Shown here: piece after piece, positions 26,138-63,487 of the stretch
How the letters are laid out: every line of letters starts with the position of its first letter
Numbering within the stretch: position 1 is the stretch's first letter
From: an uncultured Alphaproteobacteria bacterium
GTDB lineage: Bacteria > Pseudomonadota > Alphaproteobacteria > Rs-D84
DNA length: 64,000 bases
Assembly: GCA_944389385.1 (NCBI GenBank)
Contig: CALXMC010000003.1
Span: 10,356 to 74,355, forward strand
Direction of reading: 5' to 3'
Made by a program: the position numbers and the translations under genes
Notes under the pieces: model-generated
Database searches by the model: none
What the model was told of the DNA's origin: nothing
Seen by the model: only the letters and a program-made list of their open reading frames with translations

Positions 26138-26150
26138 GTTACTCGTAACT
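26138..26150 (+). repeat. GTTACTC heptad repeat motif (GTTACTCGTAACT) immediately after the pepO stop
   Basis: TAG GTA GTTACTC GTAACTT. Same motif family as at 54916, 57265, 59824, 60514 and 61896. Confidence 0.7.
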
Positions 26151-26486
26151 TTAATGATGTGCGACGAAGTGTAAAATTAAACTGATAATAAATATTACCG
26201 TGATAACGGCGATGATTATTTTTTGAGTTCGATGGCTGTGGCCGTGGCCGTCGTGACAATGTTCGCATTCGCATTTACAATCGCGCAGTACCAAATACCA
26301 CGATACGCATAACATCAGGCCTGAAAACACAAACAACCACGGTTCAACCCAATGTGGCACAATTTCAGAATGCGCAAATTCAGGCGCAAACAAACCAACC
26401 ACAGACAAAACAATCGGCAACACGCAACAAAACAGATGCGGCAAAATACTGGCAATTATTCCGATTTTAACGGCTTTGTTTTTCAT
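26151..26486 (-). CDS. Small Cys/His-rich membrane protein, possible MerT/MerF-like metal ion transporter
   Basis: ATG at 26484-26486 (MKNKAVKIG..). TM helix with vicinal cysteines LPHLFCCVLPIVL. A second TM. C-terminal metal-binding-like CKCECEHCHDGHGHSH. Confidence 0.4.
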   Translation of the reverse strand: MKNKAVKIGIIASILPHLFCCVLPIVLSVVGLFAPEFAHSEIVPHWVEPWLFVFSGLMLCVSWYLVLRDCKCECEHCHDGHGHSHRTQKIIIAVITVIFIISLILHFVAHH

Positions 26487-26503
26487 AATATAAAATCCTT
26501 TCT

Positions 26504-26521
26504 GGTATCCCCAACAGGAAT
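26504..26521. repeat. 18-bp direct repeat identical to the 3' end of tRNA-Arg (att-like scar)
   Basis: GGTATCCCCAACAGGAAT at 26504-26521 is identical to 26621-26638 inside the tRNA. The two copies are separated by 99 bp. Confidence 0.7.
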
Positions 26522-26619
26522 GCTTCGCCACCTTGCAAAATTGCGCTTGGGCGCAACCGGCGTACTTCCGTCCGCTTTTTTGCTGCGGTTCGAACCTTTG
26601 CCACAGGTTCGCTTCCTGT

Positions 26620-26695
26620 TGGTATCCCCAACAGGAATCGAACCTGTATCAAGGGTTTAGGAAACCCTCGTTCTATCCAGTTGAACTATGGGGAC
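26620..26695 (-). tRNA. tRNA-Arg (anticodon CCT)
   Basis: Reverse complement GTCCCCATAGTTCAACTGGATAGAACGAGGGTTTCCTAAACCCTTGATACAGGTTCGATTCCTGTTGGGGATACCA. Cloverleaf with anticodon loop TTCCTAA. Confidence 0.85.
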
Positions 26696-26727
26696 AACGC
26701 ACTATATTTTATTCACAGATTTTAATA

Positions 26728-26756
26728 TTGCAAGTTGTAATCATGACGGTTATAAT
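26728..26756 (+). promoter_or_regulatory. Near-consensus sigma70 promoter upstream of fabH-ihfA
   Basis: TTGCAA, 17-nt spacer, TATAAT, about 35 nt upstream of the fabH start. Confidence 0.5.
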
Positions 26757-26789
26757 GCCGTGGCAAAAAAATAAAAAGGAAAGGGATAT

Positions 26790-60530: not shown

Positions 60531-60850
60531 ATAAACCACCCTTCGCCAGGGCTTCGGGCGATAGACCACCCCGCCCCAACCACCCACGAAAATTGCATTT
60601 TCGTGGGGCCCGGTATCGCGGCACCCCTCCGCTAGATGAGGAACTTAGACCGCAACAAGACGAGAGATAGCAGCCATATTCTGCCGCTAGATGGAGAACT
60701 TTGTTCCGCGACGGTACGAGAGTCAGTACCACCATCCATCGTAAAGGGTAACTTACCCCGCCCAGGTTCCACCCACGTAAACTTTGTTTGCGCGGGGCTC
60801 GGTGTGGGTCGGTGGGCATTGGTGCGTTCCTGTCGTGGGGGATTGAAATA
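60531..60850 (+). repeat. Copy B of the structured non-coding repeat
   Basis: GATAAACCACCC TTCGCCAGGG CTTCGGGCGATAGACCACCCC, then a 50-bp insertion carrying the perfect hairpin CCACGAAAATTGCATTTTCGTGG, then the shared core ACCCCTCCGC..GAGAGATAGCAGCCATATTCTGCCGCTAGATGGAGAACTTTGTTCCGCGACGGTACGAG. The right arm diverges from copy A. Confidence 0.65.
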
Positions 60851-60890
60851 TTTGCAAGATGCACTATAAGTATTTTTGATACTAAAATTG

Positions 60891-60916
60891 TGCGCGCATT
60901 GGCGCGCTTTTTTTAT
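60891..60916 (+). terminator. Terminator-like hairpin
   Basis: GCGCGCATTGGCGCGC followed by TTTTTTTATTT. Confidence 0.35.
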
Positions 60917-61088
60917 TTGCAATTGCAAAAAAATCCAATTATCGCGATTCGCAATGCAAATTAAAAAAACTGGGAACGAATCGAAAAACTTATTCGATAT
61001 ACAACCAACAGTTGTAATGTTTTACAGATTCAACCAAATGCTTTATACATAAAGTACACGATTAACAATTACCCAAAGGAGAGATAAA

Positions 61089-61442
61089 ATGAATAAACAA
61101 AACACATGCGAATTAACATCAAATGCTGAAAAATTCCAAAGCGCAGAACAATTATGGTTTTGGTTTTTATATTCCAAATCTGTACGAAATGGTTTTAATC
61201 AAAATCACAATGTAACAACACGACGCGTGTGCGAAATTCTGGATGTAGAAACGTTAATTACCAAACTGTATTTATCTGGTAAATTAACCGATGCCCAGTT
61301 GGCTGTGATGAAAAAATTTGGCGATCGGCGGCGGGCACCACATCAGTATATTTGGGCTGAAAACCATGCGGCCGCACTGTGGCGCAGCGCAATGGATGTA
61401 ATAGATTCAGCCGCCAAACAAATGGGATGGTTGGAACAATAA
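61089..61442 (+). CDS. Hypothetical small protein
   Basis: RBS AAAGGAGAG 6 nt before the ATG. 117 aa. MNKQNTCELTSNAEKFQSAEQLWFWFLYS.. No recognisable domain. Confidence 0.4.
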   Translation: MNKQNTCELTSNAEKFQSAEQLWFWFLYSKSVRNGFNQNHNVTTRRVCEILDVETLITKLYLSGKLTDAQLAVMKKFGDRRRAPHQYIWAENHAAALWRSAMDVIDSAAKQMGWLEQ

Positions 61443-61863
61443 TAAGCAACTGTTTTTTACAAATGTTGTCCGCGCGCCATGCGGATTTTTTTATATCGTT
61501 ACAGTTAACAAGCCACAGGATATTATCATGATAATTGCTTTTTCGCCGAATTCTTCACGAATTATACCGCGAATTTTTTGCAGAAAATTCCGCCATTGCG
61601 CGCCCATTATCGAACCCACGCGCGGGCGGTTCATTATGTACCAATTCGTGCATCGGGGGCATATTGCGCAAATTTATCTGACCACGCGCGCGATAAAAAT
61701 CCTGGGGGCAAATGGTTGGCATTTTATAACTGTATCCGCCGTCCCACCCCGCGATTTAATGCAACGCGCACGTGCATGTCGGTCGTGCGTTGCGTTTTGT
61801 AAATTGGCAATCGGGATACGTTCAGCGCGAACATTTACCCCATTGGGGCTGTATCGGTTACTC

Positions 61864-61890
61864 GCAAAAAGCGCGCGCCACTGGCGCGCC
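61864..61890 (-). terminator. Rho-independent terminator of yidC
   Basis: On the minus strand: GGGCGCGCCAGTGGCGCGCGC hairpin followed by TTTTTGCGAG, immediately after the yidC stop. Confidence 0.55.
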
Positions 61891-61894
61891 CAAT

Positions 61895-63487
61895 TCACGA
61901 GTTACGGGTAACTTTTTTAATATAATACATCTGCCCCAGGCCAAAGATGTTTGAAATCGTCCAGTACAAGACCAATCCCGACGGCATCCATGCAAACATT
62001 ACTGTAAACAGTAACGGCATCCATTTCATCATTCGCTGGGTCTGGGCCACAGGGTCGTCTTTCTTGGTGTCTGATTTTGGCGCGGATGCACTTTGCATAT
62101 ATTGCTGTAACCACATCGTCGCCCCCATCAGTATCGGCAAGATAAAGTAAGGATCCATTGACGCCAAATCAGATATCCACAGAAAATGTGCGCCACGCAT
62201 TTGAACCGATATCAGCAGCGCTTTATACAGCGCAAAGAAAATTGGAATTTGAATCAACATCGGCAAACATCCCGACATCGGGGACGTCTTGTGCGTTTGG
62301 TACAGACGCATCATTTCCATCTGCATACGCGCGCGGTCATTGGCATACAGTTTTTGAATCCGCGCCATTTCAGGCTGCATTTTTTGCATCGCCGCCATGG
62401 ATGTATATGATTTGCGTGTCAATGGCCACATTGCCAAGCGCAACAACAATGTCATTATGATAATTGCCACGCCGTAATTCATAACAACTGAATTCAATAT
62501 GTGCAGCAACCATAAAATCGGACGAACAAAGAACCAAAACCATCCATAATCAACCGTTTCATCCAAGCCCGAGATTATCGTATCGGCCGACTGCAATATG
62601 CGATGGTCGCGTGGCCCCATATATAAATTCGTTGTAATGGTTACGTCTGAGCCCGGTGCAATCTGGACTGCGGCGGCCGCGGCATCCGCAATAAACATAT
62701 CGCCCAGTGGCTTTACACGCATTGTTTGATCGGGGGACGCAATGGACAAAACTGTTTCCCAATACTGATCCACAAATCCGATAAATCCAGAATCTGTCGA
62801 ATAAGCATACGATTTATCCGCAATGCGTGGCCAATCTTCGTGTTCCAAATCAAAATTCACGTATGCAACCGAACCACTATACACGCCCGCCGAAGACTCC
62901 ATGTCGTTCGCACGCAGAATTTCTGCATAGGGGGCAATCGCAATCGCGTCGGATGTATTATTTTTTATCGTGTCATTAACCGATATAACATATCCATCAA
63001 CCGTGATTTTGCGGTTAAATTCAACGCCATCTGAATTGCGCCACGAATAAGTATCGCCGTTTTGTTCCCACACCGTCGTTTGTGTCGGGACATCAACCCC
63101 ATTGGCAATCATACCAACCAACGCGTACGCACCGTCCGCACCCAACAATACAACCGGGTCGGATTCATCATTGGACGCGTCCGCAGCATAATCCAACAAT
63201 TTTACGTCTGATATACGCAGACCTTGAACCGTGGCGGTTAAATTTTCAGACGATATTTCAGACGTCGGCACCCCAGACACATCAACCGTTTCGATTTGGG
63301 TATCGGTTACTTCTGGCTTTGGCGTATTTGGTGTCATCCACCAAGACAACAACCACCACGATGCTATAAACAAAATAAACCACCACAATATCCCGCCCAG
63401 ACGCGATTTTTTGGCATTCGCGTCACGATCACGCGCAGCGTTCCATTGTTGAAATCCTGATGTATTATTATTCAAATATTTTACCAT
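61895..63487 (-). CDS. yidC: Membrane protein insertase YidC
   Basis: 530 aa. N-terminal TM, large periplasmic domain, C-terminal five-TM core (..MWPLTRKSYTSMAAMQKMQPEMARIQKLY..). Confidence 0.9.
   Translation of the reverse strand: MVKYLNNNTSGFQQWNAARDRDANAKKSRLGGILWWFILFIASWWLLSWWMTPNTPKPEVTDTQIETVDVSGVPTSEISSENLTATVQGLRISDVKLLDYAADASNDESDPVVLLGADGAYALVGMIANGVDVPTQTTVWEQNGDTYSWRNSDGVEFNRKITVDGYVISVNDTIKNNTSDAIAIAPYAEILRANDMESSAGVYSGSVAYVNFDLEHEDWPRIADKSYAYSTDSGFIGFVDQYWETVLSIASPDQTMRVKPLGDMFIADAAAAAVQIAPGSDVTITTNLYMGPRDHRILQSADTIISGLDETVDYGWFWFFVRPILWLLHILNSVVMNYGVAIIIMTLLLRLAMWPLTRKSYTSMAAMQKMQPEMARIQKLYANDRARMQMEMMRLYQTHKTSPMSGCLPMLIQIPIFFALYKALLISVQMRGAHFLWISDLASMDPYFILPILMGATMWLQQYMQSASAPKSDTKKDDPVAQTQRMMKWMPLLFTVMFAWMPSGLVLYWTISNIFGLGQMYYIKKVTRNS
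61896..61912 (-). repeat. GTTACTC-family motif overlapping the last codons and stop of yidC
   Basis: Minus-strand sense GTTACCC GTAACTC GTGA encodes ..VTRNS-stop. Same heptad family as at the virB gene ends. Confidence 0.6.

Follow-up and report, generated by a model that had tools for sequence, protein, structure and literature searches.

Why should short tandem arrays of a seven-nucleotide repeat lie directly at the ends of genes as different as pepO, virB9, virB10 and yidC? The question is raised by a stretch of 64,000 nucleotides from an uncultured Alphaproteobacteria bacterium (GTDB lineage Rs-D84; contig CALXMC010000003.1, positions 10,356 to 74,355 of the forward strand), the whole of which is referred to here as the window. 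The repeats are heptads of the form GTNACTN, and a reading made from the sequence alone had described six arrays of them, proposing a function tied to gene ends and to the virB genes; that interpretation is partly supported. The heptads are one genome-wide short dispersed repeat family of a clade of uncultured Alphaproteobacteria and are not specific to pepO, virB or yidC. The reading favoured here, with a probability of about 0.5, is that GTNACTN is a dispersed DNA repeat resembling the repetitive extragenic palindromic (REP) and short tandemly repeated repetitive (STRR) sequences, tolerated only at gene ends and serving as a hotspot for recombination and insertion.

The heptad arrays as one repeat family

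All six arrays were found where the sequence-only reading had placed them, with 2 to 5.4 units each and a strict 7-nt register throughout, at a density of 6 in 64 kb or about one per 10 kb. The string GTWACTCGTWACTC with at most one mismatch gave 12 matches in the window as against 0.01 expected from shuffled sequences. The arrays are listed below with the two structures that adjoin them.

26138-26151, plus strand: array at the pepO end, GTTACTC GTAACTT, 2 units, 3 nt past the pepO stop (TAG, 26132-26134)
54914-54941, minus strand: array GTTACTT GTAACTC GTTACTG GTTACTA, 4 units, in the interior of the hairpin upstream of virB8
54901-54956, no strand: hairpin or palindrome upstream of virB8 with outer stem GCAAGCAAAAA/TTTTTGCTTGC, 56 nt, from folding
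57265-57295, plus strand: array GTTACTG GTTACTC GTAACTC GTTACTT and then GTG, 4 units (57265-57292), 0 nt after the virB9 stop
59824-59861, plus strand: array (GTTACTC GTGACTC) x2.7, 5.4 units, 6 nt after the virB10 stop
60514-60527, plus strand: array GTTACTC GTAACTC, 2 units, at the junction of a C module and a B module
61895-61912 (units 61899-61912), minus strand: array GTTACCC GTAACTC and then GTGA, forming the last five yidC codons and the stop (V T R N S *)
61873-61889, minus strand: intrinsic terminator of yidC, downstream of the array, -28.3 kcal/mol, z = -3.7

Tandem Repeats Finder returned a period of 7 (or 14) at 54915, 57265 and 59824. The strict 7-bp periodicity claimed earlier stands as far as the register is concerned, since this is kept at all six sites, but the true period of the virB10 array is 14 bp. 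Pfam searches on the gene calls confirmed the M13 peptidase, VirB8, CagX/VirB9, TrbI/VirB10 and YidC.

The extent of the family was seen by scanning one genome per species with the 19-mer GTTACTCGTRACTCGTTAC, which found 94 DNA stretches. The sister metagenome-assembled genome (MAG) BRZ_AB__bin14, below bin14, contains 22 strict matches and these are spread across all of its large contigs. The 19-mer is also present in the sister MAGs bin67 and bin36 and in Candidatus Enterousia. A special link to the virB genes, with the heptads shuffling the genes of a type IV secretion system (T4SS), had been suggested; it finds no support, given this spread in bin14 and a synteny that is identical in five further species, most of them without arrays.

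The clade loci gave 57 arrays and 197 units, with 2 to 7 units per array and mostly 4. The GTNAC core is palindromic and the arrays typically end in GTG. While positions 1, 2, 4 and 5 (GT.AC) of the 197-unit profile are fixed by the search pattern itself, T occupies position 6 in 181 units and C occupies position 7 in 132. At the centre, T (126 units) is commonest, followed by A (43), G (27) and C (a single unit); A and G are the bases able to pair with T or U. An exact copy of one 31-nt sequence, GTTACTGGTTACTCGTAACTCGTTACTCGTG, regarded as the master copy, was found at 8 loci. These belong to three sister species and are unrelated in their 5' flanks, and the virB9-virB10 array of the window is one mismatch away from this sequence. 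Independent slippage cannot yield an identical order of variant units at separate loci and the arrays must therefore have been copied as blocks. Heptamer slippage as a general habit of the clade is likewise ruled out, given that 30 of the 32 period-7 arrays in 341 kb of clade DNA are of the GTNACTN family.

The placement of the arrays is far from random. Four of the six window arrays are at most 6 nt from a gene 3' end, a result matched by 4 of 20000 random non-coding placements (p about 2e-4). The array at pepO fills the whole 16-nt gap between two convergent stops and also touches the second of these (26151-26153), which belongs to a 126-aa open reading frame (ORF) on the minus strand (26151-26531). 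The array between virB9 and virB10 ends 20 nt ahead of the virB10 ATG. Of the arrays in the sister genomes that lie at most 40 nt from one gene end only, 17 run in sense with that gene and 2 in antisense (p = 7e-4). The bias to gene 3' ends that had been noticed in the window is thus upheld by permutation there and by orientation in the sister genomes. No array was found within a genuine gene, those ORFs of at least 150 aa that contain one being mechanical ORFs through repeat nests. The usual order in bin14 is a stop codon, an intrinsic terminator, the array right after the T-tract and then a hairpin module, B, described below.

The near-exact coincidence with stop codons can be explained from the units themselves. 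TAA or TGA is present in each of them, on one of the two strands. A frame that enters an array in the antisense direction is therefore closed within three units or so, and one in the sense direction is closed only by a GTAAC or GTGAC unit. These internal stops, along with deletions ending at arrays, are probably why the arrays sit 'exactly' at stop codons. Behind the stops of virB9 and of the convergent ORF beside pepO there is a second stop in frame. Backup termination of translation as a general role is nevertheless ruled out as no such stop follows soon after pepO or virB10.

It had also been proposed that neighbouring units, being reverse complements, form short hairpins. A stable fold was obtained only for the palindrome at 54.9 kb, where positions 54901-54956 fold at -24.9 and -27.1 kcal/mol (z about -6.9 and -6.7), a stability due to its conserved A/T-rich outer stems. 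The arrays outside this palindrome fold no better than shuffled sequence (-1 to -15.8 kcal/mol; z = 0.14, -1.6 and 0.9), which rules out stable hairpins within the arrays. Neither are they intrinsic terminators, as both a G+C-rich stem-loop and a U-tract are absent and separate terminators are found beside arrays. A search of the window against Rfam at gathering thresholds gave three tRNAs only and no family on the arrays.

Filled sites, empty sites and the nest after virB10

The gene order rpoC-rpoB...secE, virB8-virB9-virB10, two small ORFs and yidC is common to the window and five further species (L105-L109), allowing orthologous sites to be compared directly. The presence of an array varies among these six syntenic species. 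In the virB9-virB10 spacer an array is found in the window, in L105 (four different units) and in L107 (two units); L106, L108 and L109 have none and their spacer is 19-24 nt long. After virB10 there is an array in the window and one of 3 units in bin67 (locus L087) and none in L105-L109. The C-terminus of YidC in the window, ...KKVTRNS*, is encoded within its array, and the tails that carry an array (the window, bin67 and L105) end in KKVTRNS* or VTRNL*, the bin67 array having 8 units. The tails without one (L106-L109) end in KKRLQK*, KRLQK*, KKYAKK* or KRVSK*. This comparison shows that at yidC the array displaced the four final codons and that the stop is now part of it. More generally, the alternation of filled and empty sites argues that the arrays are insertions rather than ancient signals. 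The palindrome stems GCAAGCAAAAA...TTTTTGCTTGC, located between tRNA-Trp/secE and virB8, are conserved in all six species; they enclose about 70-130 nt of unrelated variable sequence in L105-L109 and only the array in the window. This inverted repeat may be a promoter region, a small RNA or an old mobile element.

Strains also differ at some of the arrays. The array after virB10 is 14 bp (two units) shorter in L006, one of six strains, in agreement with the earlier suggestion that copy number here could vary by slippage. This is the only length variant among the strains; the arrays at 54.9 kb, virB9 and yidC are invariant, with that at 54914-54941 identical in 10 strains. In L006 a deletion also joins the sequence of the two B copies found after virB10. 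Strains with identical PepO carry GTTACTC/GTAACTT, GTTACGA/GTAACTT or GTTACGA/GTGACTT at the pepO array, and the change of TC to GA is an inversion of the spacer within the palindrome GTTAC-NN-GTAAC; in the third form the centre base of the second unit has gone from A to G. Furthermore, five of seven strain contigs (L112, L114 and L116-L118; 3499-4003) contain a segment of about 490 bp between the pepO stop and the array, so that this indel ends at the array. The segment comprises the pepO terminator and, on the opposite strand, an ORF for a hydrophobic membrane protein of 61 aa, and the window represents the short form without it (junction at 26135-26137). It was not found elsewhere in the sequences compared, and its junctions show neither a second array nor a target duplication.

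The largest difference from the sister species lies just beyond virB10, where the distance to the next ORF is 1271 bp in the window and 237-310 bp in L105-L109. This region is a nest of repeat modules with the following parts.

59862-60835, no strand: repeat-module nest after virB10, repeat families D1-D6 and I1-I3, absent from the sister species
59865-59901, plus strand: B module copy 1, CACCCTTCGCCAAGGATTCGGGTGATAAACCACCCCG, repeat family D3
60485-60498, plus strand: C module core, CCTTCGCAATGACA, which precedes arrays
60537-60573, plus strand: B module copy 2, D3, 89% identical to copy 1

Besides the B hairpin the nest contains a palindromic module of about 170 bp, inverted repeats of the form TTGTCATTCCCGCG...CGGGAAT, the C module, the second array and the second B. 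In terms of its repeats, the nest comprises two 71-nt direct repeats, a palindromic module with the ends AACCACCCCGGC/GCCGGGGTGGTT and a pair of 29-nt inverted repeats, TTGTCATTCCCGCGAAGGCGGGAATAGGG, resembling the dRS3-type repeats of Neisseria. Homology to L087 resumes at 60836 and the sister genome has many matches to the modules of the nest. The copy at 60514, which had been viewed as isolated and perhaps as the mark of a lost gene end, is instead the junction of C module, array and B module inside this nest of about 1 kb.

The association of modules and arrays extends beyond the nest. At least two heptads stand directly before 31 of the 42 copies of the B module (CACCCTTCGCC..GGGTG). Among 18 copies of the C module with the exact core, the next element is an array in 12, a single unit in 3 and another module in 3. 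At least four contig ends of bin14 are within 100 nt of an array. Taken with the spacer inversion, the indel of about 490 bp at pepO, the deletion in L006 and the module insertions, these contig breaks support the idea that the arrays are recombination hotspots.

Some further features of the window and its source can be recorded here. Parts of the window are 94-98% identical to bin14, and the VirB9 protein is unchanged on metagenome contigs from many samples. The virB8-virB9-virB10 trio (54952-59817) adjoins the rpoBC/ribosomal-protein cluster, a synteny conserved across the clade, and no further T4SS gene was recognised among the window ORFs scanned. VirB9 (511 aa) and VirB10 (833 aa) are unusually long, with a SPOR domain added to VirB9 in some relatives, and virB10 has a coding repeat of 6/18/36 nt at 57815-57899. 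Comparison of positions 2281-8896 with bin14 (L019) showed three adjacent blocks to be rearranged, with identities of 94-98% versus 72-78%, which suggests that the middle block of two large ORFs, neither with a Pfam match, was replaced by recombination. The window also encodes a Protochlamydia-type outer-membrane protein and a Chlamydia PMP-repeat protein (21485-22960 and 38921-41605) and several ORFs of 330-900 aa without a Pfam match. Such proteins and the many large orphan proteins suggest a host-associated lifestyle. The source is a member of a little-known, gut-type and apparently host-associated alphaproteobacterial clade.

Heptads in other phyla and the readings of the arrays

The 19-mer was found 45 times outside the two array-rich genomes where about 9 matches would be expected in 596 Gb, this baseline being chance and not the frequency of other heptads. 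A T follows the third core in 41 of these 45 matches and the flanking units continue the motif. The sources include Nitrospirota, Chloroflexota, Bacteroidota, Patescibacteria, Planctomycetota, Acidobacteriota, Chlorobium, Spirochaetota and others. GTNACTN arrays of 3-5 units occur in more than 10 other phyla, some of them spanning the distance from a stop to the next start codon, and many ORFs there have their stop in the first unit of an array or in the last. In two Thermodesulfovibrionales genomes (L050, 1300-1420; L080, reverse, 3530-3650) the spacer of two same-strand genes consists of two inverted arrays. From stop to ATG it comprises an antisense array of 4 units, a T-rich spacer of 18 nt and a sense array of 3-4 units that runs straight into the ATG with no Shine-Dalgarno sequence; the gene pair is read as rny-ymdB from its terminal sequences only.

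The Anaerolineae MAG S143_38 has 98 period-7 arrays in 124 kb (L044 at 1900-2320, L048 and other loci), with consensus units GTTACTC, GTTAATC, GTGATGC, GTCATGC, GTAATGC and others, which may be read as one related CGTNA.. group. They alternate with a hairpin module of about 36 nt, GGTTGGCGCC...CCAACC. A Chitinophagales MAG (L020, 1589-2107, reverse) has an unbroken array of about 500 bp in which some 70 heptads of GTTACTC, GTCACTC, GTTGCTC and GCTACTC are mixed.

On the favoured reading the history of the family runs as follows. Arrays reach new places by copying or insertion, as the identical 31-nt copies and the empty orthologous sites demonstrate. They would presumably persist only where they do no harm, that is, past stops and terminators, in short intercistronic spacers and in last codons. 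Once in place their stop codons would end incoming reading frames, which is seen at yidC and is likely to apply elsewhere. Such quasi-palindromic tandem DNA is unstable, as is seen from the gain or loss of two units, the spacer flips, the indels, the attachment of B and C modules and the nests. The copying itself may be the work of a trans-acting recombinase, of an HUH-type enzyme or of gene conversion combined with slippage.

Several observations weigh against this account. The strong sense bias of 17:2 could equally reflect a cis-element under selection or a factor that binds specifically. So could the recurrence across phyla, and so could the single centre C in 197 units, as neutral decay should give C via transitions. 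The same holds for the GT.AC positions, which are kept in every unit of the orthologous arrays despite diverged flanks. The sister-genome loci were chosen for containing arrays and the module statistics given above are biased accordingly. Finally, no enzyme came to light. The 40 largest ORFs of the window contain no transposase, recombinase, integrase, rep gene, methyltransferase or endonuclease by Pfam, and the Pfam families listed for 113 array-adjacent ORFs of the clade (the first 25 of 70) include neither a transposase nor a recombinase. A REP-associated tyrosine transposase (RAYT, a Y1 HUH enzyme) was seen neither in the window ORFs nor among those same families. For 78 array-adjacent ORFs of the Anaerolineae MAG, the families listed likewise included no multi-copy transposase or recombinase.

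The arrays might instead act at the RNA level, as a cis-element in a 3' untranslated region or intercistronic spacer with effects on the decay or processing of mRNA, on backup termination or on how the next cistron is translated. They could do so either by offering consecutive 7-nt sites to a single-strand-binding protein (a cold-shock-domain or S1-type protein, with one heptad for each domain, or a HutP/TRAP-like oligomer) or through pairing between GUUAC and GURAC units. By either route this is unlikely, though it deserves consideration. The sense orientation of 17:2 speaks for it, a centre of T, A or G but not C suits U-A and U.G pairing, and in cistron spacers (virB9-virB10, operons of other phyla and rny-ymdB) the arrays end at most 14-26 nt before a start. 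A similar role has been proposed for TAACTGA heptamers (PMC4679880), and CspB binds pyrimidine-rich heptanucleotides (PMC1904285). However, most arrays in the sister genome start just after the U-tract of a terminator and would thus be present only in read-through RNA. Moreover, the arrays fold no better than shuffles, the same operons exist in sister species without arrays, the orientation flips between strains at the pepO site and inverted pairs of arrays occur in other phyla.

A protein site in duplex DNA is a further possibility, again an improbable one: GTNAC subsites 7 bp apart could be bound cooperatively by a small dimer or could be the core or landing sites of a recombinase. The palindromic core, the strict 7-bp register with typically 3-5 units (21-35 bp) and the contrast between an invariant GT.AC and variable positions 3 and 7 all speak for such a site. 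So do the modules in fixed order on both sides of the arrays, the inverting spacer and a strain-variable segment of about 490 bp, with its small gene, that ends exactly at an array. Against this, no candidate gene for a binding protein or recombinase was found in the window or among the Pfam families listed near arrays, and most arrays are downstream of genes and not in promoters. The asymmetry of the centre, where G is allowed and C is not, is unexpected for symmetric recognition of a duplex, and the junctions of the segment of about 490 bp have neither a second array nor a target duplication.

More ambitiously, GTNACTN could be the cis-site of an undescribed, horizontally spread gene-boundary system present in more than 10 phyla. 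It might offer landing or recombination sites at which small modules and gene cassettes come and go, like those of REP-RAYT or integron systems, or else rows of 7-nt sites that a single-strand-binding protein would read singly to decide the fate of transcripts at gene ends. We regard this as speculative and rather improbable. The near-absence of C at the centre, the sense bias and the avoidance of GTNAC in array-less sisters would be the fingerprints of such a system. Should a dedicated enzyme or binding protein exist, the cross-phylum distribution would mean that a widespread and undescribed system is at work.

The avoidance just mentioned leads to another possibility, that the arrays are clusters of GTNAC or GTWAC restriction or methylation sites and a by-product of restriction-modification. 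GTTAC and GTAAC are among the most under-represented words in the array-less sisters, and in L106 GTGAC and GTCAC are under-represented as well. The observed/expected ratio for GTWAC/GTNAC, which are among the most avoided pentamers, is 0.10 in L109, 0.35-0.40 in L106 and 0.49 in L108, and there is no under-representation in the window (0.90) or in L105 and L107 (array carriers, 0.90-1.12). The avoidance of GTTAC and GTAAC looks like the footprint of a GTWAC/GTNAC restriction-modification system in part of the clade. As an origin for the arrays this is very improbable, because avoidance tells where arrays cannot live and not why they exist, Pfam gave no methyltransferase or endonuclease in the window, and neither the conserved T at position 6 nor the 7-bp register is accounted for.

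Other candidates can be dismissed briefly. The iteron-like site suggested earlier fails since iterons are about 17-22 bp long, clustered at an origin and accompanied by a rep gene, whereas these units are of 7 bp, dispersed at gene ends and without a replication gene in the window. GTTACTC does not fit the core GTTRRRY that, with the inverse core RYYYAAC, flanks the imperfect palindrome of integron attC sites, and there is no integrase in the window. Phage origin is not supported as the 19-mer has no match in a viral contig collection. DNA uptake sequences, motifs of 10-12 nt that recur about once per kb and often as inverted pairs in terminators, are excluded by the lack of any known dialect of DNA uptake or uptake signal sequence in the window, by the density of about 1 array per 10 kb and by the presence of the motif in unrelated phyla. 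Repeated insertion and excision leaving 7-bp target-site duplications would fit the flanking modules but not identical 31-nt arrays at unrelated loci. Phase-variable simple sequence repeats, in which the number of identical units in an ORF or promoter switches expression, do not fit units that are non-identical, arrays that lie past stop codons and a single length variant among strains.

Regarded as a dispersed repeat, GTNACTN offers good material for study. Its core is palindromic, its 31-nt master copy is fixed, and its filled and empty orthologous sites can be compared directly. Strains differ by the loss of units, by an inverted spacer and by an indel with one end at an array. YidC provides a documented case in which a repeat rewrote the C-terminus of a protein and now supplies its stop. 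The arrays also show how such repeats seed nests that break metagenome assemblies.

Comparison with known systems

Bacteria have been known to carry tandem heptamer repeats since 1990, and these are the commonest class of longer simple repeats. To our knowledge neither their function nor the mechanism by which they spread has been established. A literature search with array strings of 13 and 14 nt found no paper carrying those strings, and the GTNACTN unit is neither the TAACTGA nor the STRR unit sequence.

The omega repressor of plasmid pSM19035 binds heptad operators (WATCACW) and ParG binds ACTC boxes (8 bp), with contiguous units in direct or inverted order and one ribbon-helix-helix dimer per unit. 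Their arrays are plasmid operators or centromeres upstream of the regulated genes. GTNACTN arrays share with them the contiguous 7-bp units, the 3-5 units per array and the recurrent ACTC tetramer, but are chromosomal, dispersed and mostly downstream of genes. The sequence differs and no candidate protein was identified in the ORFs scanned.

The STRR tandem heptamers of heterocystous cyanobacteria were reportedly described by Mazel et al. in 1990. Tandem heptamers of this kind are dispersed and intergenic, lie near promoters or start codons and are suspected of regulatory or recombinational roles. They are not known to have a palindromic core. GTNACTN arrays are likewise dispersed intergenic tandem heptanucleotides; their units have another sequence, and longer arrays are frequent in the cyanobacteria. 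In Nostoc the heptamers are near promoters and start codons and not near stop codons (bioRxiv 10.1101/2022.06.06.494920).

The TAACTGA heptamers occur in marine Beggiatoaceae, some Cyanobacteria and Bacteroidetes, and a role in translation via S1, Csp or CsrA proteins has been proposed for them but not tested (MacGregor 2015, PMC4679880). Like GTNACTN they form short tandem arrays (2-6 copies in their case) of one 7-nt unit at many intergenic sites, are patchy across unrelated phyla and have stop codons within the units and no known binding factor. Arrays of both kinds adjoin gene boundaries, including those of ribosomal-protein operons. In the best register 5 of 7 positions match, TAACT being shared (ATAACTG versus GTAACTC). 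The differences are that the GTNACTN core is palindromic with a variable centre base, and that its arrays are joined to other modules and exist in a fixed 31-nt version that has been copied and pasted. Placement also differs, the Beggiatoa repeats being mostly just upstream of starts and GTNACTN mostly just past stops or terminators. GTNACTN arrays do precede start codons between virB9 and virB10 and at several places in other phyla, and most of the clade arrays have no downstream cistron.

The intergenic mosaic elements of Neisseria provide a parallel for the nest. They are repeat blocks bounded by 20-bp dRS3 repeats that serve as an integration target. The resemblance lies in nests of short modules joined at a small recurrent repeat and in inverted repeats of the ATTCCCGCG...CGGGAAT type. 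Here the host is alphaproteobacterial, there are no Neisseria uptake sequences and the junction is the heptad array rather than dRS3.

REP sequences are imperfect hairpins of 20-40 nt with a 5' GTAG, found in gamma-proteobacteria and mobilised by RAYT transposases. GTNACTN differs from them in being a 7-bp tandem array with weak self-pairing and no conserved GTAG, and no RAYT was found in the ORFs scanned. In genomic habit it is nevertheless similar to REP, to the bacterial interspersed mosaic elements (BIME) and to the REP doublets forming hairpins (REPIN; PMC3116915), with large numbers of copies outside genes, chiefly at 3' ends and in the spacers of convergent genes or of cistrons. As with REP and BIME, GTNACTN is found singly or in mosaic clusters, marks hotspots for insertion and rearrangement and has a non-autonomous mode of spread.

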